A stretch of DNA of 64,000 bases. Origin: an uncultured Planctomycetia bacterium. Lineage in GTDB: Bacteria; Omnitrophota; Gorgyraeia; Duberdicusellales; 4484-171. Under the pieces are notes generated by a model, which saw nothing but the letters and a program-made list of their open reading frames with translations, ran no database searches and had not been told where the DNA came from. This document shows, one piece after another, positions 9,478 through 61,662 of the stretch; the first letter of the stretch is position 1; each line of letters opens with the position of its first letter. The position numbers and the translations under genes are program-made. The stretch lies in NCBI GenBank assembly GCA_964483625.1, contig CAZABB010000001.1:3222-67221 (forward strand), given 5' to 3'.

Positions 9478-10220
9478 CCGGCTTCCTCTTTCTTCCGGCT
9501 GTCTTTTACGCATACAAACAGAAAATTACGGGCGAACAGCGCGGGAAGAATTTTGTACAGTCCGGAATAATATATCCCTTCCCCTATTATTCTCAATTTT
9601 TTCCAGGGTTCCTCGCTTATCCGTTGCGGAAAATAATACTTCCGGGAAATACAGACCAGACCGGTTTTCTCAACCAGCTTCTCCAGGACATTCCGGGAAA
9701 AGACACGGATATGTTCCGAAAACAATGCATCCCGCTTGTGATATACGTCCGTTATATCTTTAAATGCCCCGCAGAGAAAATAAAACCTGTTCACTATATT
9801 CAGCATATTGGGAACCGAGATGACCAGAATGCCGTTGTCTTTCACAACCCGTCTACACTCGCCCAGGAGGGATTCCGGATCAAGCGCATGTTCCAATACA
9901 TCCATAATTAAAATAGCATCGAAAGACTTGTCGGTAAAGGGGATTCCCCCGTCAATATCGCCCAAAACAACTTTAACACCTTTGGCCGAAGCCTCCTTGA
10001 GCGCTTTCTCGCACATATCAAGGCCTATGACCGTATGGGCGGCGGTTAAATCTTCGCTCATACTGCCGCGGCCGCACCCCATATCCAGGATAAGAAAATT
10101 ATTCCGCTGTATTTTCTTTTTCACTAACTCTCGTCTCCATTTCTCATAAGGCCCCAGTGCCGTTTCCTGCCAAACTGCGAGACGATGCCAGTAATCTGTG
10201 GAATATTTTTTTATATCCAT
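9474..10220 (-). CDS. class I SAM-dependent methyltransferase
   Basis: Motif I LDMGCGRGSMSE and motif II/III region (VLGDID...ILIMDVLEH). Confidence 0.8.
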   Translation of the reverse strand: MDIKKYSTDYWHRLAVWQETALGPYEKWRRELVKKKIQRNNFLILDMGCGRGSMSEDLTAAHTVIGLDMCEKALKEASAKGVKVVLGDIDGGIPFTDKSFDAILIMDVLEHALDPESLLGECRRVVKDNGILVISVPNMLNIVNRFYFLCGAFKDITDVYHKRDALFSEHIRVFSRNVLEKLVEKTGLVCISRKYYFPQRISEEPWKKLRIIGEGIYYSGLYKILPALFARNFLFVCVKDSRKKEEAG

Positions 10221-10226
10221 ACGTTT

Positions 10227-11249
10227 CTATCCGCCGCTCATAGGGGCGGATTCCTGACCCCGGTAAACCGGCCGGGAAGGCAGTCTCTGTTTGAAAACAA
10301 TTTCGTAGAGAACACCCGTCTTAAATATCAATCTGGTAACAAGCACGACGAAAAATTCACCAAGAGCACGGAAAGGAAGCTGGAATTCTTCCCGGTGTTT
10401 TACCATGGACGCGGCGACGATCAGGAAGGGAGACAGGATAAAAAATACCGTCTTTCTGATCCCTGCGGGAACATTCACATCAAAATGCCTGTTGAAAAAA
10501 TACATCTGCGCATACCCTCTTCCATAAATAAAGTACTGTTTCGCCAGGGCGGCAAACGCAGCCCGGTGATAATGCTTCACGGTGATACCGGGAATGTAGA
10601 GCAGTTTTCTCCCCTCACGGCAAAGAGATAAATGCAGACTAAGATCATCACAATTTATTAAACGTTCATCAAATCTGAATTTTTTGAATATATCTTTCTT
10701 ATAGGAAATATTGCAGCCGCGAAGGTGTACCGCCTCAAAAGGCTTATCTTCCCGCCTGAAATACCGGCGCAGAAATGAGGAATCCGCCGGAGTATTTTCA
10801 ATAATATCATTGTCGTCCCATATGATCTGACTGACACGGTGGAAAAAATTATTTTTTAAAGCGGGGATCGCTTTCCCCCCTATCGCCATGACGCGGGGAT
10901 ACATATTGTGGAATTTCAAAATATTCTCGACCCACATCTTATCGCAAACGCAATCATCGTCGGTTAACGCGATCACATCTCCCGCACAATACCGCAGACC
11001 CGTATTCCTTGCCGTGGCGATATTCCTCCGTCTGCGTTCCGTGACGCATCGAAACGTCGGGAAACGGACCCGGTATCCGGCAACGACCTCCGGAGTGTTA
11101 TCCGTCGAACCATTATCCACAACAATAACCTCTTCGGGCATTCTGGTCTGAACAAGCAGACTGTCCAGACAGTTTTTCAAAAGCTCCGCTCTATTGAGCG
11201 TGACGACCAGCACCGAGATTTTCGGGGGAGAACATGTCGCATTTCTCAT
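10227..11249 (-). CDS. GT2 family glycosyltransferase with C-terminal transmembrane anchor
   Basis: ISVLVVTLNRAELL..VIVVDNGSTDNT..ALTDDDC (GT-A DxD region). The C-terminal ~100 aa are hydrophobic. Confidence 0.85.
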   Translation of the reverse strand: MRNATCSPPKISVLVVTLNRAELLKNCLDSLLVQTRMPEEVIVVDNGSTDNTPEVVAGYRVRFPTFRCVTERRRRNIATARNTGLRYCAGDVIALTDDDCVCDKMWVENILKFHNMYPRVMAIGGKAIPALKNNFFHRVSQIIWDDNDIIENTPADSSFLRRYFRREDKPFEAVHLRGCNISYKKDIFKKFRFDERLINCDDLSLHLSLCREGRKLLYIPGITVKHYHRAAFAALAKQYFIYGRGYAQMYFFNRHFDVNVPAGIRKTVFFILSPFLIVAASMVKHREEFQLPFRALGEFFVVLVTRLIFKTGVLYEIVFKQRLPSRPVYRGQESAPMSGG

Positions 11250-12783
11250 AAAGTTCTACGAAGAGACCATCGAATTCCCTGCTTTCTAATTTCCTGTATT
11301 TTTTTCCTAACCATTCCTTCACTGCCAGAGAGTTCGGTTCCAGAACACCCGTTCTGAACCAGGAAGAAGAAATCAACCATATCCTTTCGAAATTATACTT
11401 TTCGATATCCCGGCTTAAATCAATTACTCCCGGCGGGACTATCCCATCCTGCCTTTCCCGCTCCTCCCACGAACGTATCTCCTTACGCCAATATGTGTCC
11501 TGCTCGGAATAGAATGTGAAATAATACGAACCTACGGGATCACGACAGCCAAAATAGTACCATAAAGAGGGCACACTGCTCGGATGCGTGTGCGCGATGA
11601 TATCATTTTTTTCCAGTTTCCTCTTTAGATATCCCGCCACGGAAACAAAATCCTTCTTAGGACACACTCCCACCGAATGCCGATTGCCGTATCCCAAAGG
11701 CATAAAGCCCGTATAATAATTAGACAGAGATACCACCGTCAACAGAACGACTCCGGCGCCGAGAAGAAACCTCACCCCGTATGCGCCTATACCGGTCACT
11801 CCCGAAGCGACGATAATATAATAAAACGGGGAAACCGCCATATTTTGCCGGTCAAGGTATATGGGTATCCATTGGGAGAAAAAAAAAGAGGCAAAAACAG
11901 GTGCAAATAAAAATACAAGCAGAAACGACACGTTTTGAGCGCGGCGGCGGCAGTAGAAAATACCGCCGATAAACAACAGAGTACATAAAATCGATCCCGG
12001 AAGATAGGCGTGGTTCGGAGCGTTGTACCCCAACGTGAAATTTTCAAAAGTAGCTAAAAGAGAACGAGGAACAGGCGTAGACAGCCAAAACGCATCTTTT
12101 ACCCAGTTGAGGTGGCTGAAAGCCTCCTTAAACCAGGGACTGAAGACAGGGAGAATCACAAGATAACTTATCAACCATTTCCTGACCGGTACTTTTTCTC
12201 TTCGAAAAAAAAGGAAAGGTATACCGGCCAAAATCACCCAGAAGGTAAAATAAGACACATAAAGGCCGAGAATAGCCGAGAGCGCAAAAGAAATCCAAAG
12301 CCACGATTTATCTTCTTTTACGGCGCGTACAAAAAAATACACTATTGCCATTATGAAACAAGGCAACAAAGTGTATTCTCTCACCTCCTGCGCATACCAG
12401 ATATGAAGGGGAGAAATAGCCAGGAGAAACGCGCTGATCAATCCCGTCTTTCTGTCGACAAACAGACTCGCCAATGTATATATCCAGAATATGGAGATCA
12501 CGCCGAACAGCACCGAAAGGGAACGCAGAGCAGCTTCACCTCTGCCAAATACTCTGATCCAGAGGCTCAGTAACGCATAATATAAAGGAGGCTGGGGACT
12601 TGATGAAGAATAATTTTCCACGATACGTACACTCACGGCTTCATCATACCAGAGATCATTGGCATCCAATCTATACATCCTCAGAGCCGTTCCGAGGAGG
12701 ATAATGAGAAAGAGGACAATAATGACCTTTTGATTTCGCATATGCAGGAGAAGTGTCATAAGGATATGCCGGTTTTCATGCAA
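11191..12783 (-). CDS. GT-C fold glycosyltransferase, ArnT/PMT-like (GT39/GT83-type; polyprenyl-phosphate-sugar dependent)
   Basis: About 12 predicted TM helices. N-terminal loop-1 DE motif region (ALRMYRLDANDLWYDEAVS) is typical of the dolichyl-P-mannose protein mannosyltransferase / ArnT family. Confidence 0.7.
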   Translation of the reverse strand: MHENRHILMTLLLHMRNQKVIIVLFLIILLGTALRMYRLDANDLWYDEAVSVRIVENYSSSSPQPPLYYALLSLWIRVFGRGEAALRSLSVLFGVISIFWIYTLASLFVDRKTGLISAFLLAISPLHIWYAQEVREYTLLPCFIMAIVYFFVRAVKEDKSWLWISFALSAILGLYVSYFTFWVILAGIPFLFFRREKVPVRKWLISYLVILPVFSPWFKEAFSHLNWVKDAFWLSTPVPRSLLATFENFTLGYNAPNHAYLPGSILCTLLFIGGIFYCRRRAQNVSFLLVFLFAPVFASFFFSQWIPIYLDRQNMAVSPFYYIIVASGVTGIGAYGVRFLLGAGVVLLTVVSLSNYYTGFMPLGYGNRHSVGVCPKKDFVSVAGYLKRKLEKNDIIAHTHPSSVPSLWYYFGCRDPVGSYYFTFYSEQDTYWRKEIRSWEERERQDGIVPPGVIDLSRDIEKYNFERIWLISSSWFRTGVLEPNSLAVKEWLGKKYRKLESREFDGLFVELYEKCDMFSPENLGAGRHAQ

Positions 12784-12834
12784 AACGTCTTCTCTGTAAA
12801 AATAAATGATCCATGGAAATACCTGCCGTTAAGA

Positions 12835-13854
12835 TTAAACCGGGGGTTTATCTTGCTCGACCTCCCATATATAGGGGTTTTTCTCCCGTATGTAGAAGTC
12901 GCATAAGCCCATTATTCTTGCATACGCCTCAAGAATCACGGCACCCGCCATCCAGAAAAAATAATTGAAGCCGCCTTCCAAATTGCGCACAACCAGGCTG
13001 AAAATGCGCAGATTGCTCAGGCTGGAAACGGCATACCCCGCTGTTTTTTTCAAATGAAGATGCCCGGTATAAACTCTCCTCCTCTGAGCAAGATAGGCCT
13101 TTACGGTACGAGGCCCCCTGTTGTAAACAACCGCTTCAGGAACGTAACATAAACGATACCCTTTCCGTACAACCAATGCCTCGATCGCCGCCTCATCGAC
13201 CGCCGTGTCGCCCGGTATTCTCGTTACCACCGCCTTTCTAAAAGCAACCAGCTCTCCCAATTTGGGATATTTTAACGCTAATTTATGATGCAGCAACCAC
13301 AGCCGATGCACGGCAAATCCCAGGAAATTCTCGGGAGTATCCCGGGGAACGGAACGGCCGCCGACCATTCCTGTATCGGGGATCGTAAAGGGCTTGAGAA
13401 GATTCTTAATCGTGTCTTTACACGGCACGGTGTCGCCGCTCTCTAGAATACAGATATCCGCAGAGGTCTGTTGGAGAAAATAATTTACCGCCGAGGCTTT
13501 TCCCAACCGTTCTTTTTGAACGAAAAGCCGTATTCGTCTATCGCGTTCTTTAAATCTCTTTACAACGTCTTCGGTATTGTCGGTACATCCGCTGGCTATA
13601 ACCACTATTTCATGAATAGTAAAACATCCCGGTTCCTGAGCGATTAATCCCTCTAATAACCGACTAATGTTGGCCTGCTCATTATAAACGGGTATCCCGA
13701 TACTGCAGGTAAGAATCCTTGTTTCCGTATGCGTAGCATCCATGGGCGAAACGAAACAAATCATTGTTAAAAGAAATTCTCCCTCCCTATGAAATATACG
13801 TATTATCTCATAAAAATTACTCAATATGAAGCGTTTCATCGGAATACCAAACAC
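12835..13854 (-). CDS. GT2 family glycosyltransferase
   Basis: IGIPVYNEQANISRLL...VVIASGCTDNTEDVV...ILESGDTV, GT-A fold motifs. The start is possibly the internal Met at ~13743. Confidence 0.8.
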   Translation of the reverse strand: MFGIPMKRFILSNFYEIIRIFHREGEFLLTMICFVSPMDATHTETRILTCSIGIPVYNEQANISRLLEGLIAQEPGCFTIHEIVVIASGCTDNTEDVVKRFKERDRRIRLFVQKERLGKASAVNYFLQQTSADICILESGDTVPCKDTIKNLLKPFTIPDTGMVGGRSVPRDTPENFLGFAVHRLWLLHHKLALKYPKLGELVAFRKAVVTRIPGDTAVDEAAIEALVVRKGYRLCYVPEAVVYNRGPRTVKAYLAQRRRVYTGHLHLKKTAGYAVSSLSNLRIFSLVVRNLEGGFNYFFWMAGAVILEAYARIMGLCDFYIREKNPYIWEVEQDKPPV

Positions 13855-14061
13855 CGAAACAAAAGGCCGGTCTCCCTCCGCATGAGGCTTTCCACAAATA
13901 TTCTTTTTAAAATAATTCTTTTCCTTTTTGAATCTTTTCCGACAGGGATATGTTTTATCTTTACTTGTCTCTCACATTTTGGCATAATTACTTTTACGCA
14001 TAGGAAAAGTTTTTCCCTTATCCGACAGACACCTGCCTCACTCCTGAGGCTTACGGAAAGA
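13855..14061. promoter_or_regulatory. AT-rich divergent intergenic region between oppositely oriented operons (probable divergent promoters)
   Basis: A 207-bp non-coding gap between the minus-strand GT2 gene and the plus-strand B12-rSAM gene. A GGAAAG Shine-Dalgarno-like element lies 7 nt before the ATG at 14062. No specific -35/-10 elements are called. Confidence 0.25.
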
Positions 14062-15429
14062 ATGAATATAAAAGTAGCGTTGATTAATCCGACAATCAAA
14101 GAACTTCAAGCAAGCGAAGTACCCTTGCACTTGGGGTATATCGCGGGACACCTGGAACAAAACGGTATCGAAGTAATAATCATAGACCAGGCGGCCGGGG
14201 ATGATGTGGAGAGAGAAATCGATTCTTATCGTCCCGACATAATCGGCATCAGCAGTATGTCGGCCATGATAGGCGAAGCCTATAGAATAGCGGACATGTG
14301 CCGTAACAGAGGAATCCTCACCGTCATGGGAGGAGAACATGCCAGCGCGTTGCCGGAAGAAGCACAGGAACACGCCGATGTAGTTGTGGCAGGGGAAGGA
14401 GAGATAGCTATGCTGGATATCGTCAGAAAAAAAATCACATCCGGCATCATATCCGGTCCCCAGCTGGAAGATATAGACGATCTGCCGTTATATCCCTGGC
14501 ATCTTATCAACCAGACATACTATCTCAATTTATCAAACGAAACGAAACTGGCCACCCTTGCTTTTCTCGGCTCCCGTCTCTCTTCGGCCAAAACGAGTTC
14601 ATTTCTTACCAGCCGGGGATGTCCCTTTCACTGTACCTTCTGCCATAACAGTCTGAGACAGGTTCATTTCAGATTCCATAGCGCCGAGAGGATAGTAGAA
14701 GAGATGAAACGCCTCAGGGTAGATTACGGCGTTGAAGCCATAGCGTTTTTAGACGAGAATTTTCTGTTGAATAAGACAAGGCTTGAGAAAATTTGCCGTA
14801 CCATACGAAAAGAAAAGCTCAGTGTCCTATGGAGCTGTGCCAGTTCGGCTCATTTCGTCGACGCACAATCTGTCCGGATGATCCGGGATGCCGGATGCCG
14901 GCAGGTATCCTTCGGCGTAGAAAGCGGCTCGCAAAGAATTTTGGACATTCTGAATAAGTCCGTTACGGTAGAACAAAATAAAAAGGCAATCAAAATCTGC
15001 CGGGAAGCCGGATTGATCGTGCACGGTTCATTCATGCTGGGAAATCCCACGGAGACCGTCGAAGATGTAAAATTAACCCAAAAGTTCATTCTCGAGACCG
15101 ACATCGAAAGCTACCGTATCAATATCACCACGCCCTATCCCGGCACGAAACTCTGGGAACTCTACCACGAACAAATTCCCCGGCCTATTGACTGGCATCG
15201 TTTCGAAGCAAGCACCAATATCGAGACATACCCCTATACCCCATTCAGCAGGGAAGAACTCAAACGCCTGTTCTTTGAAACTTCGCTGATAAAGCCGGCG
15301 ATATATAAACGGGACTGGAAAATGGCGCTGCGTTATCCAAAAGAAACGATTTCCTGGGGTATCCGGCATCCGTTGACAGCAACGAGAATTATCGCAGGGA
15401 AATATAATATGAGAAGCATGCAAGACTGA
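14062..15429 (+). CDS. cobalamin-binding (class B) radical SAM enzyme
   Basis: MNIKVALINP..B12-binding Rossmann region, SRGCPFHCTFC. The start is placed at the ATG after the GGAAAG SD. The in-frame upstream ORF from 13789 is probably not translated. Confidence 0.85.
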   Translation: MNIKVALINPTIKELQASEVPLHLGYIAGHLEQNGIEVIIIDQAAGDDVEREIDSYRPDIIGISSMSAMIGEAYRIADMCRNRGILTVMGGEHASALPEEAQEHADVVVAGEGEIAMLDIVRKKITSGIISGPQLEDIDDLPLYPWHLINQTYYLNLSNETKLATLAFLGSRLSSAKTSSFLTSRGCPFHCTFCHNSLRQVHFRFHSAERIVEEMKRLRVDYGVEAIAFLDENFLLNKTRLEKICRTIRKEKLSVLWSCASSAHFVDAQSVRMIRDAGCRQVSFGVESGSQRILDILNKSVTVEQNKKAIKICREAGLIVHGSFMLGNPTETVEDVKLTQKFILETDIESYRINITTPYPGTKLWELYHEQIPRPIDWHRFEASTNIETYPYTPFSREELKRLFFETSLIKPAIYKRDWKMALRYPKETISWGIRHPLTATRIIAGKYNMRSMQD

Positions 15430-15481
15430 AACTGTATTTCAAATAGTCGTTATATATAGAAGGAAAAATTTACCGTACATC

Positions 15482-17230
15482 ATGACTGTAAAAGTAGCAT
15501 TGATATCCATCATCACCGGGAAATATTTTTTCGAAAGCGTAGGAAAACTCAGAAGCCTTGCCCCCCGGCAGCTGAAACTCTACGCGCTCGGCGACGAATA
15601 CATCCGGCGCAACGTCACCATAGAAATAAAAGACTTTATCTCCGAAGACCTCTTTTACAGCGATAAAATATATTATCACGCCTTATGGAACATCACCCGT
15701 CAGATATATGAAATGAAGCCCGATATCGTGGGTTTTTCCTGTTATTTATGGAATATCCGCCACATCCTTTCCCTGACCCGGAATCTGAAAAATATACTGC
15801 CCGGTGTCACGACCATACTGGGCGGCCCGGAAGTCTCTTCACAACCATTTTCCCGGGAGATTATGGAAAAAAACGACGGCATAGATATTATCGTCCGGGG
15901 AGAAGGAGAACAAACGTTCCGCGAACTTGTCTTATCCTGTCTCAACCACACTCCGAAAGATACGATCCCCGGCCTTACCCTGCGCAAAGAAAACGAAATT
16001 CTCGTAACTCCCGACCGAACCGACCGCGTCGACATCAACCATATCCCTTCGGTTTATGAAACAGAAATAACTCAAAGCTATTGTCCGGGAGAGATCGCCC
16101 AGCTGGAAACCGTACGGGGATGCCCCTACCGCTGCCATTTCTGCCTCTGGCCGGGAAAATCAAGCAGTATGCTTACCCGATCCCGGATAGAACACGAATT
16201 GCGCCTGATCAAAAAAGCCGGCTTTCAGGAAGTATATATTTTTGATTCGATTCTGGGATACGCAAGGCAGAGGACGAAAGAAATCCTTCAGCTCCTTTTG
16301 GATATGCAACTTGGGATGCGTTACACATTCTATCTTGACTTGAATTATATCGACGAAGATAGCATCCTGCTCTTAAAAAAAGGGAAGGATACTTTGCATC
16401 TCGCTCCCCTCGGCGTCCAGACTCTGCATGAAGAAGCTCTCAAAATAAATAATATATTTTTCAACAGACACACATTTGAAAAAACACTAAGCATGCTCAA
16501 CGCAAACAAGATCCCCTACAGTGCCAATCTCATTATGGGACTTCCCGGAGATACCCACGCAACGTTCAAACAGTCTTTCAATACACTGTACGGCCTGACC
16601 TGCGATATACACATCCGGCCCCTCTTGGTCAATCCGGGCACACATCTTTTCGAACACGCATCACAATATAAAATCAAACATGTAGGAATGGACGAATGCC
16701 ACAGAGAACTTTCCAATAAATCATACAGCTATGAAGATATGAATAGAACGGTACGCTTTATGATCGGATACCTCGTATTGAAGTACGGCTATGAAACGGC
16801 ACGGCCGTTAAGGGAATGGGTTCTTCTCCTGGACCGTTCTCTACGTTTTGCTTCGCGTCATTTTGAAATCAGCCCGGCAGATCTTATCGATTCTTTCGGT
16901 GAATATCTGGAAAAAGAAATGCCGGTATACTTTTCTCCTACTACCGACAGAATGAATATGTATTCTGTTTCACGTCTTCACCTCCCGCTTTTTATCCGGT
17001 TTTTTCGCACCCTGCCGCGGCGGGGCGGCCGGATACTGCATCGTATTATTCTGTATATTTTTCTCGCGACAGAATATATCACGTGGCGATACAACATCCA
17101 TCTGAGGAACATAATTTACTTCTATCCAAAACTGCAGTGGTATTCGCTCAAAATGAAGGTTGCCGGCAGGTTGGCATCGTATAGGCGTATTTTCCTAGGG
17201 AACAACGACGTGTCGATGAGGGAAAAATGA
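15482..17230 (+). CDS. cobalamin-binding (class B) radical SAM enzyme, tandem paralog A
   Basis: VRGCPYRCHFC motif and N-terminal B12-like domain. Residues ~24-250 are identical to those of the next gene. Confidence 0.85.
   Translation: MTVKVALISIITGKYFFESVGKLRSLAPRQLKLYALGDEYIRRNVTIEIKDFISEDLFYSDKIYYHALWNITRQIYEMKPDIVGFSCYLWNIRHILSLTRNLKNILPGVTTILGGPEVSSQPFSREIMEKNDGIDIIVRGEGEQTFRELVLSCLNHTPKDTIPGLTLRKENEILVTPDRTDRVDINHIPSVYETEITQSYCPGEIAQLETVRGCPYRCHFCLWPGKSSSMLTRSRIEHELRLIKKAGFQEVYIFDSILGYARQRTKEILQLLLDMQLGMRYTFYLDLNYIDEDSILLLKKGKDTLHLAPLGVQTLHEEALKINNIFFNRHTFEKTLSMLNANKIPYSANLIMGLPGDTHATFKQSFNTLYGLTCDIHIRPLLVNPGTHLFEHASQYKIKHVGMDECHRELSNKSYSYEDMNRTVRFMIGYLVLKYGYETARPLREWVLLLDRSLRFASRHFEISPADLIDSFGEYLEKEMPVYFSPTTDRMNMYSVSRLHLPLFIRFFRTLPRRGGRILHRIILYIFLATEYITWRYNIHLRNIIYFYPKLQWYSLKMKVAGRLASYRRIFLGNNDVSMREK
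15548..16233. repeat. 686-bp tract 100% identical to 17287..17972 (copy 1 of a gene-conversion tract inside tandem B12-rSAM paralogs)
   Basis: Direct comparison of the two regions, offset 1739 nt. Six-frame ORFs in all frames are duplicated identically (15742..16038 = 17481..17777, etc.). Confidence 0.9.
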
Positions 17231-18966
17231 ATATATCATTGATATCCATTATTTTCGGAAAAACTTTTTTTGACAGTACGAACTTTCTCAGAAGCCTTGC
17301 CCCCCGGCAGCTGAAACTCTACGCGCTCGGCGACGAATACATCCGGCGCAACGTCACCATAGAAATAAAAGACTTTATCTCCGAAGACCTCTTTTACAGC
17401 GATAAAATATATTATCACGCCTTATGGAACATCACCCGTCAGATATATGAAATGAAGCCCGATATCGTGGGTTTTTCCTGTTATTTATGGAATATCCGCC
17501 ACATCCTTTCCCTGACCCGGAATCTGAAAAATATACTGCCCGGTGTCACGACCATACTGGGCGGCCCGGAAGTCTCTTCACAACCATTTTCCCGGGAGAT
17601 TATGGAAAAAAACGACGGCATAGATATTATCGTCCGGGGAGAAGGAGAACAAACGTTCCGCGAACTTGTCTTATCCTGTCTCAACCACACTCCGAAAGAT
17701 ACGATCCCCGGCCTTACCCTGCGCAAAGAAAACGAAATTCTCGTAACTCCCGACCGAACCGACCGCGTCGACATCAACCATATCCCTTCGGTTTATGAAA
17801 CAGAAATAACTCAAAGCTATTGTCCGGGAGAGATCGCCCAGCTGGAAACCGTACGGGGATGCCCCTACCGCTGCCATTTCTGCCTCTGGCCGGGAAAATC
17901 AAGCAGTATGCTTACCCGATCCCGGATAGAACACGAATTGCGCCTGATCAAAAAAGCCGGCTTTCAGGAAGTGTGTATCTACGATTCGATTCTGGGATAC
18001 ACAAGACAACGGGCGAAGGAGATCATTCAATTGATTTTGGATCTCAAACTGGGGCTTAAGTTTAATTTCTTTCTCGATCTTAACAACATCGACGAATCCA
18101 TTGTAAAACTTGCAAAAAAGCACGAAAACATCCTACGCCCTCTTCCCCTAGGGGTGCAGACGTTACACGACGAATCATTGAAGAATACTAATATTTTCTT
18201 CAACACTGAGCGGTTTGCAAAAGGGATAGAGACTATCGATAAACACCATATGACATATGACGGGATAGACCTGCTTATCGGCCTACCAGGCGACCGCCAG
18301 GCCACCTTTAAACACTCCTTGAATCAACTGTATGCTCTTTCTCCCCGGATACATATCCGGCATCTCTTCGTCAATCCGGGGACTCATTTCTTCGAAAACC
18401 TCGAGAAATACGGGATGGCCCGTTCAGATATCGATCAATGTCACAGGATGCTGTATAATTATTCCTACAGTTACGAAAACGTCCATAAAAGCATACGCCT
18501 TCTCGTGGGATACCTCGTGTTAAAATATGGATACGAACCCGTACTTCCGTTGCGCAAATGGCTGCCGCTTTTGCGCCGCTCATTGTCATTTACCCTGCGG
18601 CATTTTTCGGTAAGCCCCGCCGATCTCTTTGATTTGTTCGGTGAATATCTGGAGAAGGAAATCCCGGCGTATTTTTCTCCCACCACCGACAGGATGAATA
18701 TGTATTCGGCCCCGCGGCTTCATCTTCCGCTTTTTCTCCGGTTCTTTCGCACCCTGCCGCTGCGGCGTAATAGAGGAGTATACCGCGAAATCTTATATCT
18801 TATTACTGCGGCAGAGTACGCCAGATGGAGGTGGAACATCCACCTGAGGAATATGATCTATTTATATCCTCGGCTACAACGCTATTCGTTATTTACAATC
18901 TTTTCCGGAACATGTGCACGATTTTTGAAATTATTCATAAGAAATAGCCGGGCAGATATCCGTTGA
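17227..18966 (+). CDS. cobalamin-binding (class B) radical SAM enzyme, tandem paralog B
   Basis: VRGCPYRCHFC. The start ATG overlaps the stop of paralog A (ATGA), suggesting translational coupling. The C-terminal half is ~55-60% identical to paralog A. Confidence 0.85.
   Translation: MNISLISIIFGKTFFDSTNFLRSLAPRQLKLYALGDEYIRRNVTIEIKDFISEDLFYSDKIYYHALWNITRQIYEMKPDIVGFSCYLWNIRHILSLTRNLKNILPGVTTILGGPEVSSQPFSREIMEKNDGIDIIVRGEGEQTFRELVLSCLNHTPKDTIPGLTLRKENEILVTPDRTDRVDINHIPSVYETEITQSYCPGEIAQLETVRGCPYRCHFCLWPGKSSSMLTRSRIEHELRLIKKAGFQEVCIYDSILGYTRQRAKEIIQLILDLKLGLKFNFFLDLNNIDESIVKLAKKHENILRPLPLGVQTLHDESLKNTNIFFNTERFAKGIETIDKHHMTYDGIDLLIGLPGDRQATFKHSLNQLYALSPRIHIRHLFVNPGTHFFENLEKYGMARSDIDQCHRMLYNYSYSYENVHKSIRLLVGYLVLKYGYEPVLPLRKWLPLLRRSLSFTLRHFSVSPADLFDLFGEYLEKEIPAYFSPTTDRMNMYSAPRLHLPLFLRFFRTLPLRRNRGVYREILYLITAAEYARWRWNIHLRNMIYLYPRLQRYSLFTIFSGTCARFLKLFIRNSRADIR
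17287..17972. repeat. 686-bp tract identical to 15548..16233 (copy 2)
   Basis: As above. Flanking sequence on both sides is clearly diverged. Confidence 0.9.
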
Positions 18967-19022
18967 CCAGAGGACATTCAATCCATGGCGGCGGGATTTT
19001 TCATTCTACCGGAATATCAGAC

Positions 19023-19838
19023 ATGGATTACGCTGTAGAAATAAGTCATTTGACCAAGACCTTTAGACCAAATAAAACATTTTATCGTTTTCTCACTCAT
19101 CCATTTCGTGTCGAAAAACCCATAACCGCTCTTCACGATATCTCACTCCGGATCAAGAAAGGTGAACTACTGACCCTTGTCGGCCCAAATGGCGCGGGAA
19201 AAAGTACGTTGTTAAAAATCCTTTCCTGCCTTATCCTGCCGACCTCGGGAAAAGCCAAAATAGCAGGACACGATGTGGTAAAAAATCCCGGAGAAGTAAA
19301 AATGGCCATAGGTCTGATTTCCGGCGATGAACGAAGTTTCTACTGGCGCCTTACCCTGCGCCAGAATCTTTCTTTCTTTGCCGCCTTATACAACGTCTTC
19401 GGTAATCAAGCAGAAGAAAGGATGAAATATCTTGCGTCTTTTCTCCAATTGACTCCTCACTTGGACCGGCGTTTTCAGGAAACATCCACCGGAATCAGAC
19501 AACGGATGATGATCGCGCGTAGTTTACTCAACAATCCTTCCGTTCTGTTTATGGACGAACCGAATAAAAGTCTGGATATCGCCATAAACAGAGAGCTTTT
19601 CCGGACAATAGAAGAAGAACTGATCAACAAACAGGGGAAAACAATCATCCTGGCCACACATACCCTTTCTGAGATACACACACCTGTGACGAAGATAGCG
19701 ATAATGAAAGAAGGAGAAATAAAAGCATGCGGGACCATCGAAGAGTTAACCCGGTCGTTTAACGTGTCTTCGAAAAATACCGAACATATATATAAAACGG
19801 TGATACAAGATGAATCGTACGGAGACATTCCTACGTAA
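19023..19838 (+). CDS. ABC transporter ATP-binding protein (ABC-2 / Wzt-TagH-like exporter ATPase, no C-terminal carbohydrate-binding domain)
   Basis: Walker A LVGPNGAGKSTLLKIL, signature/Walker B region (..LFMDEPNKSLD). The start is trimmed to MDYAVEISHLTKTF; the longest ORF runs from 18963. Confidence 0.85.
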   Translation: MDYAVEISHLTKTFRPNKTFYRFLTHPFRVEKPITALHDISLRIKKGELLTLVGPNGAGKSTLLKILSCLILPTSGKAKIAGHDVVKNPGEVKMAIGLISGDERSFYWRLTLRQNLSFFAALYNVFGNQAEERMKYLASFLQLTPHLDRRFQETSTGIRQRMMIARSLLNNPSVLFMDEPNKSLDIAINRELFRTIEEELINKQGKTIILATHTLSEIHTPVTKIAIMKEGEIKACGTIEELTRSFNVSSKNTEHIYKTVIQDESYGDIPT

Positions 19839-20634
19839 AGCGTGGGCTTTCATCAAAAAAGATTTTCATATCCAGTCAAGTTACCGTATCTCTTTCCTTT
19901 TCGAATGGTTAGGCATCCTGATCCACGCGGCAACGTTCTATTTTGTGGCAAAGTTGTTCGAACAGAACCTGACGCCTTACCTGAAAGAATACCAGACCGG
20001 ATATTTCCCTTTTGTTCTTATCGGGATAGCCTTTTCCGGATACCTTTCTATTGCCATACGCAGTTTTTCGGGAAATATACGGCGGGAACAAATGATGGGC
20101 ACATTGGAAGCAATGATAACAACCCCCACCCGGCTGCCGATATTGATCGTTTCTCTCTCACTCTGGAACTTCATCTTTACCTCCATCAGCAGTTTTATTT
20201 ATCTGTCCTGCGGCGTACTGTTTTTTGACGTCGATTTAAGCCATATGAACATCGGAGCCACGCTGATTATTCTTCTGCTCACGATCGTCTCATTCAGCTG
20301 TATCGGGATAATTTCCGCTTCGTTTGTGATCGTGCTGAAAAAAGGCGACCCGGTCAGCTGGCTGACGGATACATTCGCTCGATTTTTCGGAGGAGCCCTC
20401 TTTCCCGTAATCATACTCCCGAAGGGATTACGGACGATTTCTTATTTTTTACCGATCACATATTCACTCAAAGCACTGCGCCATTCTCTGCTGCAGGGAT
20501 ATGGATTCAGCATGCTCCGTTTCGAAATCGGGATACTGCTGGCATTCTGTATTATTCTTGGTCCCCTCAGCCTATGGACATTTCGCGGCGCGGTCAGGAA
20601 AGCGAAAAATACGGGAAGCCTGGCCCATTATTGA
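19810..20634 (+). CDS. ABC-2 type transporter permease (Wzm/TagG-like)
   Basis: About 6 TM helices and an N-terminal amphipathic AFIKKDF motif typical of ABC-2 permeases. It overlaps the ATPase gene by 29 nt. Confidence 0.8.
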   Translation: MNRTETFLRKAWAFIKKDFHIQSSYRISFLFEWLGILIHAATFYFVAKLFEQNLTPYLKEYQTGYFPFVLIGIAFSGYLSIAIRSFSGNIRREQMMGTLEAMITTPTRLPILIVSLSLWNFIFTSISSFIYLSCGVLFFDVDLSHMNIGATLIILLLTIVSFSCIGIISASFVIVLKKGDPVSWLTDTFARFFGGALFPVIILPKGLRTISYFLPITYSLKALRHSLLQGYGFSMLRFEIGILLAFCIILGPLSLWTFRGAVRKAKNTGSLAHY

Positions 20635-20679
20635 TATATCCTGCGGCGGCCGGGTATCGCGCATATATCGAGTTGTACA

Positions 20680-21738
20680 ATGTTATTAAGTCGTATTCAC
20701 CGGTATCTACCCAACATCTTCGGGTTCCTCCCCACGAGCATCAAACTCCGCCTTACCTATCGATGCAATCTTACATGTATCATGTGTCCGGTCTGGAAAA
20801 CTCCCGGCTGGAAGCCCGATGCAGATAAAGAGACGACCTTTTCCGAACTCTCGGCAATCGTCAAAGATATTATGGCTTCGTATCAAAAAATTCCCTATCG
20901 CCCCTACGTTTCTCTCTCGGGGGGGGAACCCTTCCTGAGAAGTGATATCATCGAAATCAGTCGTTTCCTCGATGACAGCGATATCCCGGGCTTCTGCATA
21001 AACTCCAACGGAACACAGATAAAAAACGACCAGATCTCGGCTTTACGTAATCTAAGAAAACTTCATATCAACATATCACTCTTAGGCCCGGAACATGTCC
21101 ACGACCGGATAACCGGCAAAAAAGGATCATTCCAGCAAACTCTGACGACAATAAAAAAACTGCGGGAAAACAATTTCAAAGTTACCCTTCAGACAACGAT
21201 CACATCGCTCAATCAAAGCCACCTTCTCGATATATGCAGCATCGCACAAGATCTCCACTGTGCCCTTTGTTATAATTTCGGTCAATTTTCCCGCCTGCAA
21301 GATCATATCCGCCAGAAAGAGATCACAAAAAAAGAATTTTCTGAAGAATTCTTGAATACCAGCTCTGTAGCCCGGACCTTTTTTCATATTAATCCCGACA
21401 TTCTGAAAGAGCAGGTAGCGGCCGTCCGGGAAAAAGCTCTTCGCTCCCGCATTCCCTGCCGCTTCATTCCCGATATCGGTCTCGATGAAATAGAAGATTA
21501 CTACCATGACGCGGCGTATCGCGTCGCAGCCACATGCCCTTATTTTTTTTCCGGGATAACGATTACTCCTTCGGGAGGATTGACACCCTGCGTCCTCCAT
21601 TACGAAATATGCAACGTAAAACACACCGGCTTCGCCGGATCGCTAGGGCATGAACGGTTCAGAAAACTGAGAGCATATATACGGAAGCACGGAATCTTTC
21701 CCGTCTGTCGTCATTGTGGATATCTTACAAAAACATAA
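20680..21738 (+). CDS. radical SAM enzyme with SPASM domain
   Basis: LRLTYRCNLTCIMC and SGGEPFL motifs. C-terminal SPASM region CPYFFSG..PC..C...CRHCGYL. Confidence 0.85.
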   Translation: MLLSRIHRYLPNIFGFLPTSIKLRLTYRCNLTCIMCPVWKTPGWKPDADKETTFSELSAIVKDIMASYQKIPYRPYVSLSGGEPFLRSDIIEISRFLDDSDIPGFCINSNGTQIKNDQISALRNLRKLHINISLLGPEHVHDRITGKKGSFQQTLTTIKKLRENNFKVTLQTTITSLNQSHLLDICSIAQDLHCALCYNFGQFSRLQDHIRQKEITKKEFSEEFLNTSSVARTFFHINPDILKEQVAAVREKALRSRIPCRFIPDIGLDEIEDYYHDAAYRVAATCPYFFSGITITPSGGLTPCVLHYEICNVKHTGFAGSLGHERFRKLRAYIRKHGIFPVCRHCGYLTKT

Positions 21739-35898: not shown

Positions 35899-36912
35899 CT
35901 AGCTCTCCCCCGATAACGGCGGATATCCTTCGCAGCCTATTCCTTTCAGTACGTTTCTGACGGTTTCTTCTCCGAAATTCATTGCTAATTTCTTCTCCGC
36001 TTCCTCCCGGCTGAACTCTCCCAGCCGTATGCGTTTACTCAGTTCGATATGGTAATGCGTGTATCCATAATATTTCATCGTCAGGTATACACTCACAAAA
36101 TTCATAAGACAATTCGTCGAACCCGCCGGATAACTGAGACGGAGCGCCCTCCACTGAAGTTCTGACTGAATGCAGACGATGATCTTCTCTTCATCCCACG
36201 GTAGATACCAATGAGGTGAGATCTCTCTCCCTTTGAACTTCTTTCTCCCCCTGCATATTGCCTCCTTCATGCTAAGAGGAAAATTTTTATAGCGGGAGGT
36301 CTTTCGCATATGCCGGGCGACGAAATCGGCCGTTGCCTGCGACATGGAACGGTACTCCTCACCACTTTCACCTCTTTCTATAGTTTGACCTTTTGTCCAG
36401 CCCCCGATTATCAACGGGATTTTATACTTTGCCGCAAGATCATACGTACTCTGCATATACCAGATCGCACACACGTGACAAACAGGCGCTTTCGTCTGTG
36501 TGCGTATCATACGGGAAAATATATCTTTCATGGAATCGCTTCTGAAATAGATCCAATCGACTCCCAGGATACGCACGGCTCGTTTTACGTTCTCCAGGGC
36601 TTCCTCGTTTTCAAATCCATGGTCAAACGTAAAGGCGAGAGGATTCATCTTATATCTTTTTTTCATACAGTAAAGACTGAACACGCTGTCTTTGCCGCCG
36701 CTGCACATGACCAGACAATCATAAGCGGCGCGGCCTTTGTATTTTTTGAGCAGTTTCAGTAATTGCGATTCTTGAAAATCAATGCGGGATCGCTGAGATT
36801 TCATGTGTTCAAATTCACGGCATATATTACATACCCCCGCCTCATTCAGCCGGATGTCCGGCGTATATTCCGGTAATACACATTTTTTACACCATTTGAC
36901 ATGCCTATTCAT
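35899..36912 (-). CDS. N-acetyl sugar amidotransferase (WbpG/PseA-like PP-loop ATPase)
   Basis: N-terminal zinc-ribbon (CKKC...CNIC) and PP-loop motif CSGGKDS, in a glycan-cluster context. Confidence 0.75.
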   Translation of the reverse strand: MNRHVKWCKKCVLPEYTPDIRLNEAGVCNICREFEHMKSQRSRIDFQESQLLKLLKKYKGRAAYDCLVMCSGGKDSVFSLYCMKKRYKMNPLAFTFDHGFENEEALENVKRAVRILGVDWIYFRSDSMKDIFSRMIRTQTKAPVCHVCAIWYMQSTYDLAAKYKIPLIIGGWTKGQTIERGESGEEYRSMSQATADFVARHMRKTSRYKNFPLSMKEAICRGRKKFKGREISPHWYLPWDEEKIIVCIQSELQWRALRLSYPAGSTNCLMNFVSVYLTMKYYGYTHYHIELSKRIRLGEFSREEAEKKLAMNFGEETVRNVLKGIGCEGYPPLSGES

Positions 36913-38572
36913 ACTGCTTCTTTTTCCCGGACAAGAGCTTTAGTTCTAAAATCTTTGCAGTCACATTCCTAGCCATAATTCCATACCCCCGGCCGTTACA
37001 ATGATTGTCGAACACAAAATAGTCTTTGGGGCGTTCCCCTTGGTTCCAAAGTTCCTGAAAGGTACTTTCCTGATCGACCAAAGGCACGTCGTATTCCTTA
37101 GCGACCTCTCTCAAGATCCCGTTAATGGCATGGAAGACCGGGTAATTCTGCAGGACCAATTTCACTTTTTCCCGGCGGCATATCTCTACGAACTCTCCCA
37201 AATCAGAACGGATCCAACGACGAACGATCTCATCTTCATCTTGCCTCCGGAATGACCTGACATAAGCCGCCGCGTCCGGAGAGAGACGTTCGAGAAAAGC
37301 TCTCATCTCATCATTATCTGTTTCTCTTGTGGTGTAAATTCTCAGAATACGATAATAGTTCAACCGGTTCTCAGGATCGGCTTCTATCCCTTTTTTAAAA
37401 TAGGCGACTGCCTTCCCGTAATCTCCCTTTTCTTCATAGATTTGCCCCAAATACGTATAACTGCTGCCTTCGGAAGGATCCGCCTTCAAAGCCCGTATGA
37501 ACCACCGTATTGCCTTTTCATTATCTCCCTGCTCCCTGAATACCCGAGCCAGTTCAACGTAATTCTGAGCGTTGCCGGGATCATTACGTATTCCTTTGTG
37601 AAACCACTGACAAGCCCCCTTATAATCTTCCTGATCTTTATGTACCCAACCGAGACCGCTGTACAGATTCCCGTTACCGGAGTCTATATGCAATCCTTTT
37701 TTGAACCACATTTCTGCAATATCATAACGCCCCTGGTCTCTATATACCCATCCCAGCCCGTTATAATTACGACTATTGCCGGGATCGATGTCTATTCCTT
37801 TACGAAACCATTCGATTGCTTTCCGATAATCTTCCTGATCTTTACATACCCAGCCAAGACCGTTGTAGAGATTGCTATCTCCAGGACTTACCGCCAAACG
37901 GTCTCTAAACCATATCCTGGCCTTTTGATACCTACCTTCTTCGTGATATCTCCATCCATCACGCGAACCAGAAAGATCACGTTGCCCCGCTGGATTACAA
38001 CGGCGAGAGATCCGACCGACTGCTTTGGGAATTTTATCTTTTTCTGCGACTCTATCCCGGACTATCCTGCCTTCTTTATTATACCATAACAGCTTTACCA
38101 GCCTATATATTCTGATGCGGTAAAGCTGATCGTTAATCCAGGAACCGAGAGTCTGCCTCTTCTCGTATCTGCGATACCCCCAATAATTCCAATAGTTGGC
38201 GCCGCCGGCCAGAAGGACAATAACGTCCGGCCTCAGAGTATCTATGGTACGTGGGAGTTCATGTAAAATCTGAGCAGTATTGTGCGCGGAAACCCCTTTA
38301 TTCAACACCTGAATTTCTTTATGCGGAAAGTAGGTCGTAATGATGCTGCTTGCCTGCCGCGGCATGGTTTGAGACGAAGAAGCTCCGACCCCGTAGGTAA
38401 AAGAATCTCCCAAAAACACGATAGTATAGGCCGTCTTCCCGCCCTGAGTCACCTCAGGAGAGAGAGAGGGTCTGGCCCGGCGATGGGCATCTCCTACCAG
38501 ACGCAATCCTATTTCCCACAGGAAAACAGCAATACATACCCCAAGAAAAAGTACTTTTAACCGCTCCTTCAT
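36905..38572 (-). CDS. membrane-anchored SGNH hydrolase with ~6 TPR repeats inserted within the catalytic domain
   Basis: N-terminal TM helix. SGNH block I IVFLGDSFTYG and block III region (LLAGGANYW). Then ~6 x 34-aa TPR units (GLGWVyrDQGrYdiAemWFkKGl...). C-terminal block V FVFDNHCNGRGY (DxxH). Confidence 0.7.
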   Translation of the reverse strand: MKERLKVLFLGVCIAVFLWEIGLRLVGDAHRRARPSLSPEVTQGGKTAYTIVFLGDSFTYGVGASSSQTMPRQASSIITTYFPHKEIQVLNKGVSAHNTAQILHELPRTIDTLRPDVIVLLAGGANYWNYWGYRRYEKRQTLGSWINDQLYRIRIYRLVKLLWYNKEGRIVRDRVAEKDKIPKAVGRISRRCNPAGQRDLSGSRDGWRYHEEGRYQKARIWFRDRLAVSPGDSNLYNGLGWVCKDQEDYRKAIEWFRKGIDIDPGNSRNYNGLGWVYRDQGRYDIAEMWFKKGLHIDSGNGNLYSGLGWVHKDQEDYKGACQWFHKGIRNDPGNAQNYVELARVFREQGDNEKAIRWFIRALKADPSEGSSYTYLGQIYEEKGDYGKAVAYFKKGIEADPENRLNYYRILRIYTTRETDNDEMRAFLERLSPDAAAYVRSFRRQDEDEIVRRWIRSDLGEFVEICRREKVKLVLQNYPVFHAINGILREVAKEYDVPLVDQESTFQELWNQGERPKDYFVFDNHCNGRGYGIMARNVTAKILELKLLSGKKKQYE

Positions 38573-42164: not shown

Positions 42165-42228
42165 CTCGTGAATTATTATATGGGAAAAAGGTCTGATTGC
42201 AAGAAGAAATTAGAAGTGGGAAGAGAAA

Positions 42229-42312
42229 TGCGAGGGAGGGGATTTGAACCCCTACAGTATCGCTACCGCTAGCCCCTCAAGCTAGTGCGTCTGCCAGTTC
42301 CGCCACCCTCGC
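42229..42312 (-). tRNA. tRNA-Leu (anticodon GAG), class II tRNA with long variable arm
   Basis: The reverse complement GCGAGGGTGGCGGAACTGGCAGACGCACTAGCTTGAGGGGCTAGCGGTAGCGATACTGTAGGGGTTCAAATCCCCTCCCTCGCA folds as a cloverleaf. It has a 7-bp acceptor stem, an anticodon stem CTAGC/GCTAG with loop TTGAGGG (anticodon GAG), a TPsiC arm GGGGTTCAAATCCCC and discriminator A. CCA is not encoded. Confidence 0.85.
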
Positions 42313-42560
42313 GTTACCTTCTCAGGTTACATGCTATTCTTATCAAAAAAACAAAACGTACTATTCTTTGCCTGTCCTATGCGGGAACAACGCTTGAAAA
42401 TATCGCTCTCGCGATCGTTGTTTCCGCCACCCTCGCGTTACCTTCTCAGGTTACATGCTATTCTTATCAAAAAAACAAAACGTACTATTCTTTGCCTGTC
42501 CTATGCGGGAACAACGCTTGAAAATATCGCTCTCGCGATCGTTGTTTCCGCCACCCTCGC
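42313..42560. repeat. perfect tandem direct repeat, 2 x 124 bp, each unit ending with the first 15 nt of the adjacent tRNA-Leu (TTCCGCCACCCTCGC)
   Basis: Units 42313..42436 and 42437..42560 are identical. The 15-mer at 42298..42312 (tRNA 5' end) recurs at 42422..42436 and 42546..42560. Confidence 0.9.
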
Positions 42561-45993: not shown

Positions 45994-46701
45994 ATGCAAG
46001 ACAAAGAGGTTTCCCTTATGTTTTCCGGCGGTGTCGATTCAACGATCACCGCGATCACTCTTGCCGAACAATACCGTCACGTGCATCTTCTTACCTACGG
46101 GAATGCTCACGGCCATTACCATATGGAACGAAGCGCGAAAAGAGCAGAGGAACTGAATGCGAAATTCGGCAATAAGTTCACTCACCGGCTTATTCCTATC
46201 GAAGACCTTTTCCGGCAAATGGTATTAGATACCCTCGAAGAAGATTATAAAAAATACGGTTCGGGTTTCATCTGGTGTCTGGGATGTAAAATGACCATGC
46301 ATACCCGCAGTATTATGTATGACCTTACATATGGCATACAACATGCCTGCGACGGCTCGTCTCAGGATACCGATGAGATGGTCGAACAGATGGTCGTAAG
46401 CATTACGCTTATAAAACAGTTTTATGAAAAAAACGGCATCGATTTTTCCGTCCCCACCTACACACAGCCCCGCAGTGAGAAGAGAAAGATGCTTAAAGAA
46501 CTGAAATTCAACATGGGCATCCCGGTGGGTGATCGGTATATAGGTATCCAGCCCCGCTGCATTCCCGGAGAACTGTATTATCTACCCTACCTTATTTTTA
46601 ACAAAGCCCTGGGACACGATCGGAATAAAGTCATACAATTTATCGAAGAAAAACAGCAGATCGCCGAAAGGTATCTCAAGGAACATCTTAATCATGGGTA
46701 A
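45994..46701 (+). CDS. PP-loop ATPase (adenine nucleotide alpha-hydrolase superfamily; QueC/ExsB-like)
   Basis: SLMFSGGVDST PP-loop at the N-terminus, a CxxC pair (WCLGCK) and ~235 aa length. The exact subfamily is uncertain. Confidence 0.5.
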   Translation: MQDKEVSLMFSGGVDSTITAITLAEQYRHVHLLTYGNAHGHYHMERSAKRAEELNAKFGNKFTHRLIPIEDLFRQMVLDTLEEDYKKYGSGFIWCLGCKMTMHTRSIMYDLTYGIQHACDGSSQDTDEMVEQMVVSITLIKQFYEKNGIDFSVPTYTQPRSEKRKMLKELKFNMGIPVGDRYIGIQPRCIPGELYYLPYLIFNKALGHDRNKVIQFIEEKQQIAERYLKEHLNHG

Positions 46702-48412: not shown

Positions 48413-48681
48413 TGGACATGATTGTTTCTCTTTTTATCGCGATATACGCGTTCTTTCTTCCCGGCTACCTGGTCACAAAAACCAGTCGTATCGGCAATGG
48501 TCTGTTTACTACGATAATTCTCAGCATTGCCATAAGCATAACACTGATTCCTATTATCGCCTTCTCGCTCGCAATGATTTTTCATACGGTCATACATTAC
48601 GCAACAGTTACGATCGCGGCAACTCTCGTCAACCTGATCTGCATCGGCCACCGCTATCTTAAAAAGGTCAAAACACAATGA
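48412..48681 (+). CDS. small membrane protein (89 aa, 3 predicted TM helices)
   Basis: Start and stop codons overlap both neighbours. Almost entirely hydrophobic (IVSLFIAIYAFFLPGYLV...IILSIAISITLIPIIAFSLAMIF...). Confidence 0.5.
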   Translation: MDMIVSLFIAIYAFFLPGYLVTKTSRIGNGLFTTIILSIAISITLIPIIAFSLAMIFHTVIHYATVTIAATLVNLICIGHRYLKKVKTQ

Positions 48682-50342: not shown

Positions 50343-50344
50343 TC

Positions 50345-51745: not shown

Positions 51746-51749
51746 ATGA

Positions 51750-61609: not shown

Positions 61610-61662
61610 GTACCCCTCCTTTTATCTTATACAATCCTCTTTTCAATATCTCATCTCAACTC

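Follow-up and report, generated by a model that had tools for sequence, protein, structure and literature searches.

A 686-bp identical tract in two tandem cobalamin-dependent radical SAM genes of an uncultured Omnitrophota bacterium, a probable footprint of gene conversion

Why two neighbouring genes should agree at every nucleotide over a long internal segment, and yet differ on both sides of it until their synonymous sites are saturated, is not evident at first sight. The question is raised by a 64,000-nucleotide stretch of DNA from an uncultured Planctomycetia bacterium that GTDB places in the Omnitrophota (GenBank assembly GCA_964483625.1, contig CAZABB010000001.1, positions 3,222 to 67,221 of the forward strand); this whole stretch is referred to as the window, and positions are counted from its first letter. 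Two tandem genes on its forward strand, g1 (15482-17230, 582 amino acids) and its paralog g2 (17227-18966, 579 amino acids), encode putative cobalamin-dependent (class B) radical S-adenosylmethionine (SAM) enzymes that share an identical tract of 686 bp. It is very likely that this is a real conversion tract, be it recurrent or the product of one event, and we favour the scenario, which we hold to be probable, that the present identity is the latest of repeated conversions (concerted evolution) since the duplication of the pair.

The identical tract and its flanks

Positions 15548-16233 in g1 and 17287-17972 in g2 match at 686 of 686 bases with an offset of 1739. The run is maximal, since mismatches at 15547 and 16234 (at the same offset) prevent its extension by even one base on either side. 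Both copies lie on the forward strand, in frame and in register, that is, at homologous positions of the two genes (codons 23-250 of g1 and 21-248 of g2). An earlier note that was made from the sequence alone gives the same coordinates, offset and residues. The homogenised share amounts to 39% of each gene, the remainder being saturated at synonymous sites. While g1 and g2 can be aligned from end to end with 74% overall identity, protein identity outside the tract is ~45-50% over the 22 N-terminal codons and 57% over the 330 C-terminal codons, in keeping with the ~55-60% that had been proposed for the flanks. The C-terminal portion encodes, in g2 (17973-18966, +), the remaining radical SAM barrel and a helical C-terminal domain unique to the pair. 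In the codon alignment outside the tract, nucleotide identity is ~0.5-0.65 and third-position identity ~0.2-0.5, and no 20-mer is common to g1 and g2. The two tract copies are separated by a unique segment (16234-17286, +) that runs from the diverged 332 codons at the C-terminal end of g1 through the ATGA junction into the first 20 codons of g2, which are likewise diverged; its nucleotide identity to the matching segments of g2 and g1 is again ~0.5-0.65, with a proportion of synonymous differences (pS) of 0.76.

Counting by the Nei-Gojobori method (NG86) makes the contrast explicit. The tract has no difference over 157 synonymous and 527 non-synonymous sites (synonymous divergence, dS = 0), and the 95% upper bound on its divergence, from 0 differences in 686 bases, is 0.44%. 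The C flank has a pS of 0.76, which is saturated and beyond Jukes-Cantor correction, and a non-synonymous divergence (dN) of 0.33, while the 22 N-terminal codons have a dS of ~1.0 and a dN of 0.49. At residues conserved between g1 and g2, the same codon is used in 222 of 222 cases in the tract versus 87 of 184 (0.47) in the C flank (P ~1e-72). A dS of zero beside a saturated dS is not what duplication followed by simple drift would leave behind, as the earlier note had argued, and its proposal of intergenic recombination or conversion gains support from the same contrast in dS and codon use. Indeed, a tract that lies in register and in frame and is identical at all synonymous sites, between flanks that are saturated, points to non-reciprocal homologous recombination.

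It is conceivable that no recombination took place and that the identity reflects selection at the nucleotide level, for example on an embedded RNA or regulatory element, or an extreme constraint on the protein. The tract does hold the most recognisable motifs of the family, namely the G114-G115 loop, E141-E143 and CX3CX2C. However, all 222 degenerate codons are identical, and the data from synonymous sites effectively refute this explanation. Moreover, over 58 homologs the column entropy is 2.21 bits for residues 23-250 and likewise 2.21 bits for residues 251-420, and residues 151-180, the block where the family varies most (2.87 bits), sit within the tract and are nonetheless identical. Since the tract is no more conserved in the family than residues 251-420, protein constraint does not account for the identity. 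Rfam returned no match in the tract, its sole match in the window being a tRNA elsewhere, and promoter-like and terminator-like matches were at shuffle level in the promoter and terminator scans. We know of no constraint that freezes 686 consecutive bases, and selection without recombination appears to have practically no chance of being correct. The tract protein is 36-45% identical to other family members; thus it encodes ordinary enzyme sequence and is not an inserted or mobile element. GC content at third codon positions is 0.575 in the tract, 0.50-0.53 in its flanks and 0.45-0.55 in neighbouring genes, a marginal excess that is too weak for a claim of biased conversion.

A more specific idea is that the tract belongs to the GRINS (genetic repeats in which nucleotide skew is intense), elements that recode biosynthetic genes and promote conversion and that have been described in polyketide synthase clusters (PMC8256042). 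They are defined as duplicated segments of >500 bp with >80% identity in one cluster, in which mean |GC skew| and mean |TA skew| both exceed 0.15 and are usually correlated (PMC8256042). The tract, at 686 bp and 100% identity inside a biosynthetic cluster, has the length and identity of such an element, and its mean |GC skew| of 0.169 lies above 0.15. However, its mean |TA skew| of 0.135 lies below that value, GC skew and TA skew do not correlate (r = 0.07), and skews as high or higher occur in ~27-32% of 686-bp segments drawn at random from the window. With these skews the tract is not a GRINS by the published definition, and we consider a GRINS-type origin very improbable.

The tract in the sequencing reads

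A different concern is that the identity, or the presence of two copies, could have been created by the assembler, either because two similar copies were collapsed to one consensus or because the assembler went through a loop too often or too seldom. The window comes from a metagenome-assembled contig of 137 kb, which is found once in the protein collection, and a perfect 124-nt tandem duplication occurs on the same contig. De Bruijn assemblers can pop a few bubbles caused by single-nucleotide polymorphisms (SNPs) and resolve simple loops by convention. A second, independent assembly is provided by Logan, in which public runs, here run SRR7048225, were assembled with k=31. Logan contig SRR7048225_76348, which carries the product of the upstream gene, is an exact substring of the window (10097-15577) and ends 30 nt into copy 1 of the tract. 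Logan contig SRR7048225_310949, which was located from its predicted cut product, the prediction having been made beforehand, likewise matches the window exactly throughout its length (17943-21045), with its start 30 nt short of the end of copy 2. Breaks at k-1 = 30 nt inside both outer edges indicate a repeated node of the graph that has two ways in and two ways out, so that the repeat appears to be present in the reads together with its edges, with two left and two right contexts. The Logan contigs of the window also break elsewhere, every 2-5 kb, for unrelated reasons, but two breaks at exactly the predicted bases are no coincidence. They also confirm that the hazard of assembly collapse, against which the earlier note had warned, is real.

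The segment between the copies speaks against an artefact as well. With a C-terminal half at its beginning and the start of a gene at its end, segment 16234-17286 would only fit between two copies of the tract. The start of g2 overlaps the stop of g1 (ATGA) and is preceded 7-11 nt upstream by GAGGG, a good ribosome-binding site, and judging from these features the junction looks native and translationally coupled. In addition, the popping of bubbles hides a few SNPs at most, and the contrast with the saturated flanks would persist. On the other side, a Logan contig for the unique middle segment is not on record, which favours an artefact and weighs against a conversion tract, as does the fact that the read-level support concerns the two outer edges, with the interior of the tract, which may hide a few popped bubbles, and the copy number, which may exceed two, resting on the contig. 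Taken together, we regard an assembly artefact as improbable.

Repeated conversion or a single replacement

To understand how such a mosaic arose, the origin of the pair has to be considered. A word-indexed search of 5.8 billion protein clusters found no protein closer than 33% identity besides the paralog. When 1.84 billion representatives were searched exhaustively by HMMER with the C half of g1, a single match fell below 1e-30, namely g2 (57%); the match after it, at 33% (at most 34%), is confined to the barrel. Among the GTDB representative genomes, a scan returned only relatives of 22-23% identity. Thus the C halves are mutual nearest relatives (57% versus <=34%), indicating one whole-gene duplication in this lineage, with neither half grafted on from a foreign source, and as sister sequences they rule out a chimeric or horizontally transferred origin of the C halves. 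All other pairs of radical SAM proteins in the window are <=29% identical, and g1 and g2 are therefore its only young pair.

We propose that g1 and g2 go back to a cobalamin-dependent radical SAM gene of the CysS/TokK type that was duplicated in tandem long ago, and that homologous recombination between the tandem copies then copied one over the other without reciprocal exchange. Repeated conversion would have kept codons 23-250 near-identical ever since, while the 22 codons at the N-terminal end and the 330 at the C-terminal end would have escaped and diverged and may by now act as barriers to the extension of heteroduplexes. Selection for different substrate handling may have contributed to this divergence. 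The outcome would be two enzymes with a common cobalamin/[4Fe-4S] front end and different back ends.

What argues for recurrence is the state of the flanks. RecA-type exchange at ~60% identity is extremely inefficient, owing to minimal processing segments and mismatch-repair barriers. As the flanks share no 20-mer, a RecA-type conversion between copies that had already diverged to this extent is implausible, suggesting that the tract never drifted far. In a published model for paralogous domains of biosynthetic clusters, internal recombination keeps removing small differences until some regions escape (PMC4256081).

The alternative is a single recent replacement, by template switch or a short-homology patch, between copies whose N halves were by then as diverged as the flanks are now. 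Such an event would account for the very sharp edges, for an edge gradient that is not significant and for the lack of a clear older tract. However, both junctions lie exactly in register and in frame, pointing to guidance by homology, yet the flanks have no common 20-mer to provide it, and illegitimate events seldom land in register twice. We therefore think a single replacement unlikely, although it deserves to be weighed. The recent event proposed in the earlier note is thus retained in so far as conversion is concerned, whereas a single recent event is only one way to read the data and repeated conversion appears the likelier one.

Several observations nevertheless weigh against recurrence. 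Repeated conversion should leave an edge zone of intermediate divergence, but the gradient is weak: third-position matches at the right edge are 17 of 30 versus 121 of 300 (one-sided p ~0.06-0.07, not significant). Directly before the tract 10 of 10 bases mismatch, and at the right edge mismatches are dense within the first 10 nt; edges as sharp as these fit a single recent event, or strong selection acting at the edges, equally well. A search of the C half for older tracts that have decayed gave an equivocal result, in that codons 461-515 stand out by their run of identical codons (p 0.0002) but not by their run of third-position matches (p 0.12). No orthologous locus by which the conversion could be dated or oriented came up that was closer than ~33-36% among the 5.8 billion clusters, the 1.84 billion representatives and the GTDB representatives. 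Radical residue changes abut both edges: on the left VGK faces TNF, and on the right the changes are Y252C and F254Y. These changes are compatible with selection that removes conversions extending further.

It is also possible that the direct repeats of 686 bp serve as a recombination switch and that their identity is kept for switching. By RecA-mediated unequal exchange the pair would reversibly collapse to an in-frame hybrid, composed of the g1 start, the tract and the g2 C half, or expand to three genes, and a population would then carry heritable variation in the radical SAM modification of an exported glycan. A single- or triple-copy variant makes no new k-mers, and assemblies therefore cannot reveal switching. 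We give this scenario only a slim chance and return to repeated conversion, for which precedents exist.

The closest precedents are the KS and AT domains of modular polyketide synthases (PKSs) and the A and C domains of non-ribosomal peptide synthetases (NRPSs), for which both concerted evolution and gene conversion are documented in bacterial biosynthetic gene clusters (Medema et al., 2014, PMC4256081; Nivina et al., 2021, PMC8256042). There, too, paralogous coding segments within a cluster are homogenised in nucleotide sequence over 0.3-1.4 kb while neighbouring specificity parts have diverged, and the same cycle has been proposed, in which internal recombination erases divergence until regions escape. 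Unlike these domains, however, g1 and g2 are free-standing tandem radical SAM genes rather than modules of a megasynthase, and they carry a single, fully identical tract that lacks the nucleotide-skew signature of GRINS. The classical bacterial cases of gene conversion are tufA/tufB and the rRNA operons (reviewed in Santoyo and Romero, 2005, as cited in PMC4256081). As in our case, non-reciprocal homologous recombination keeps duplicates identical within a genome, but whole genes of the same function are homogenised there, whereas in g1 and g2 only 39% of each gene is affected. In an Escherichia coli polysaccharide cluster, recombination between the paralogs manB and cpsG causes deletions that leave a chimeric gene (PMC13626634). 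Here the resemblance is that paralogs of a surface-glycan locus recombine through common sequence, and the direct repeat would permit an in-frame g1/g2 hybrid; the difference is that manB/cpsG recombination is a reciprocal deletion that leaves one hybrid, while both g1 and g2 are kept and the exchange appears to have been non-reciprocal. In a full-text literature search that combined gene conversion with radical SAM paralogs, only unrelated papers came up. The conversion tract is new for this gene family, but it is not a new kind of event or mechanism.

The enzymes and their gene cluster

Both proteins match the Pfam families for B12-binding (1.6e-16 for g1 and 1.4e-16 for g2) and Radical_SAM (5.2e-11 and 1.5e-08). 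PF02310, the N-terminal Rossmann-type cobalamin-binding domain, reaches 60.7 and 60.8 bits, where the cut-off is 32.1, and PF04055, the radical SAM core, is above its cut-off in both. C214, C218 and C221, which form the CX3CX2C motif, are invariant in a 60-sequence family alignment, and the family-invariant residues D255, G311, G353-L354-P355 and G386 are kept in both proteins. The ratio dN/dS between g1 and g2 is far below 1, and both genes are intact and under purifying selection. The closest sequence matches in the PDB are TokK (2.9e-26) and CysS (7.5e-23). An AlphaFold (AF2) model of g1 built on the 60-sequence alignment has a mean predicted local distance difference test score (pLDDT) of 82.9 and a predicted template modelling score (pTM) of 0.82; Foldseek matches it to CysS (9n1d, E 1.1e-29, query TM-score (TMq) 0.71) and to TokK (7kdx, E 6e-28). 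More generally, the order of the three domains and their fold resemble those of CysS (PDB 9n1b-d) and TokK/ThnK (7kdx/7kdy), with TMq of 0.64-0.71 and Foldseek E values of 1e-29 to 6e-28. CX3CX2C is present, and two tryptophans align with counterparts in TokK: W90 with Trp76, beneath the corrin, and W223 with the active-site Trp215. However, identity over the fold alignment is ~19-20%, and the C-terminal helical domain of the pair is without a detectable outside relative. The two enzymes are also found in a different setting, as CysS and TokK act in cystobactamid and carbapenem synthesis, whereas g1 and g2 lie in what is probably a context of glycan or sugar modification. The nearest NCBIfam family is KedN5 (NF033712), which comprises methylcobalamin-dependent C-methyltransferases; the pair scores 154 and 147 bits against the curated cut-off of 700 and does not belong to it. 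By sequence and modelled fold, g1 and g2 are class B radical SAM enzymes outside any named subfamily, and they probably act as methylases (methyltransferases).

The helical C-terminal domain spans 16742-17227 in g1 (residues ~421-582) and 18481-18963 in g2 (residues 419-579). Among the 1.84 billion representatives it has a relative only within the pair, and local BLAST with the last 160 residues gave a match only to the paralog. Its last ~40 residues are modelled with low confidence.

How does the tract map onto this structure? In the g1 model, most of the Rossmann cobalamin domain falls inside it, followed by the linker and, from the radical SAM domain, by strand 1, the CX3CX2C loop and helix 1. 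The earlier note had assigned the B12-binding domain and the CxxxCxxC core to the tract, and C214, C218 and C221 do lie inside it. The model places the start of the tract just after Rossmann strand 1 and its end at the start of radical SAM strand 2, such that the edges cut inside both structural domains and the other SAM-binding strands fall in the diverged part. This tells against a neat version of our proposal, as a split into a cofactor module and a substrate module is only approximate. The picture of a homogenised cofactor half and a diverged substrate half thus applies loosely, but not in the sense of a clean module. In TokK, the substrate is contacted by Arg280, Leu383 and Tyr410 of the radical SAM domain, by Asn515 and Tyr652 of the C-terminal domain, and at the entrance of the tunnel by Glu19 and Tyr20 (10.1101/2021.07.10.451909). 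By rough analogy, these positions would correspond to parts that differ between g1 and g2.

The genes around the pair offer some indication of what it may act on. Directly downstream lies an ABC-2 type exporter, consisting of ATPase and permease (18963-20634, +; Pfam ABC_tran 8.8e-28, ABC2_membrane 1.5e-13), and upstream lies a B12-radical SAM gene of an unrelated subfamily (13789-15429, +), ~25% identical to the other B12-radical SAM genes of the window. The density of radical SAM genes in the window is exceptional: there are 6 B12-radical SAM genes and 9 others, 7 of these 9 with a SPASM-domain match (601-35483 and 48678-55880). Interleaved with them are genes for a myo-inositol-1-phosphate synthase, a xylose-isomerase-like TIM barrel, an epimerase, GT2, GT4 and PMT_2 glycosyltransferases, 3 carbamoyltransferases, 2 polysaccharide deacetylases and the ABC-2 exporter. 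Judging from these neighbours, the product of the cluster is probably a heavily radical-modified exported glycan or glycolipid, and the radical-SAM-rich cluster may be more interesting than the conversion tract itself. The phosphoenolpyruvate carboxykinase (PEPCK) of this uncultured, deep-branching bacterium is ~58-60% identical to named Omnitrophota, Margulisiibacteriota and WOR-1 entries, and Logan contains a relative whose PEPCK is 85% identical. Three open reading frames within the cluster, 55890-58121 (-, 743 amino acids), 35899-36912 (-, 337 amino acids) and 45994-46701 (+, 235 amino acids), have no Pfam match at E <= 1e-5.

Other exact repeats are few in a 31-mer census of the window, these being the 124-nt tandem duplication, a 69-nt inverted identity and a 32-nt TPR repeat. 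The 69-nt perfect identity (50187-50255 and 54279-54347) is found in two inverted carbamoyltransferase paralogs, at 48678-50342 (+) and 54126-55880 (-), that have 43% protein identity. Two patches of this pair have a third-position identity of 0.63 and 0.73 versus ~0.2-0.35 elsewhere. The 69-nt identity may be a second, small conversion tract, and ectopic exchange may thus be active in this genome. In the tandem duplication, 42298-42421 is perfectly repeated at 42422-42545 and followed by a third, partial copy of 17 nt (to 42562); each unit begins with 15-16 nt that form the 5' end of a tRNA-Leu(GAG) gene (42229-42312, minus strand). Slippage, an integration that left a scar, or the assembly itself may have produced it, and the break of a Logan contig at 42214 does not help to choose between them. 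Large TPR-repeat proteins (555, 1105 and 583 amino acids), encoded at 36905-38572 and 58292-63414 (minus strand), account for direct-repeat families of 60 nt and 158 nt, and one of them carries a GDSL lipase domain.

In practical terms, short-read assemblies break or collapse at the tract, and gene trees built from the N halves would mislead. For the radical SAM superfamily, the pair would provide a clean natural case of partial concerted evolution, in which the cobalamin domain and the [4Fe-4S] cluster loop are letter-identical while the remaining barrel and the C-terminal domain differ by 43%. Perhaps the most appealing aspect is that, as far as the two sequences tell, nature appears to have carried out a chimera experiment, in which one front end would work with two back ends. 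Such a pair may help to engineer class B radical SAM methylases and to find where their specificity is determined.

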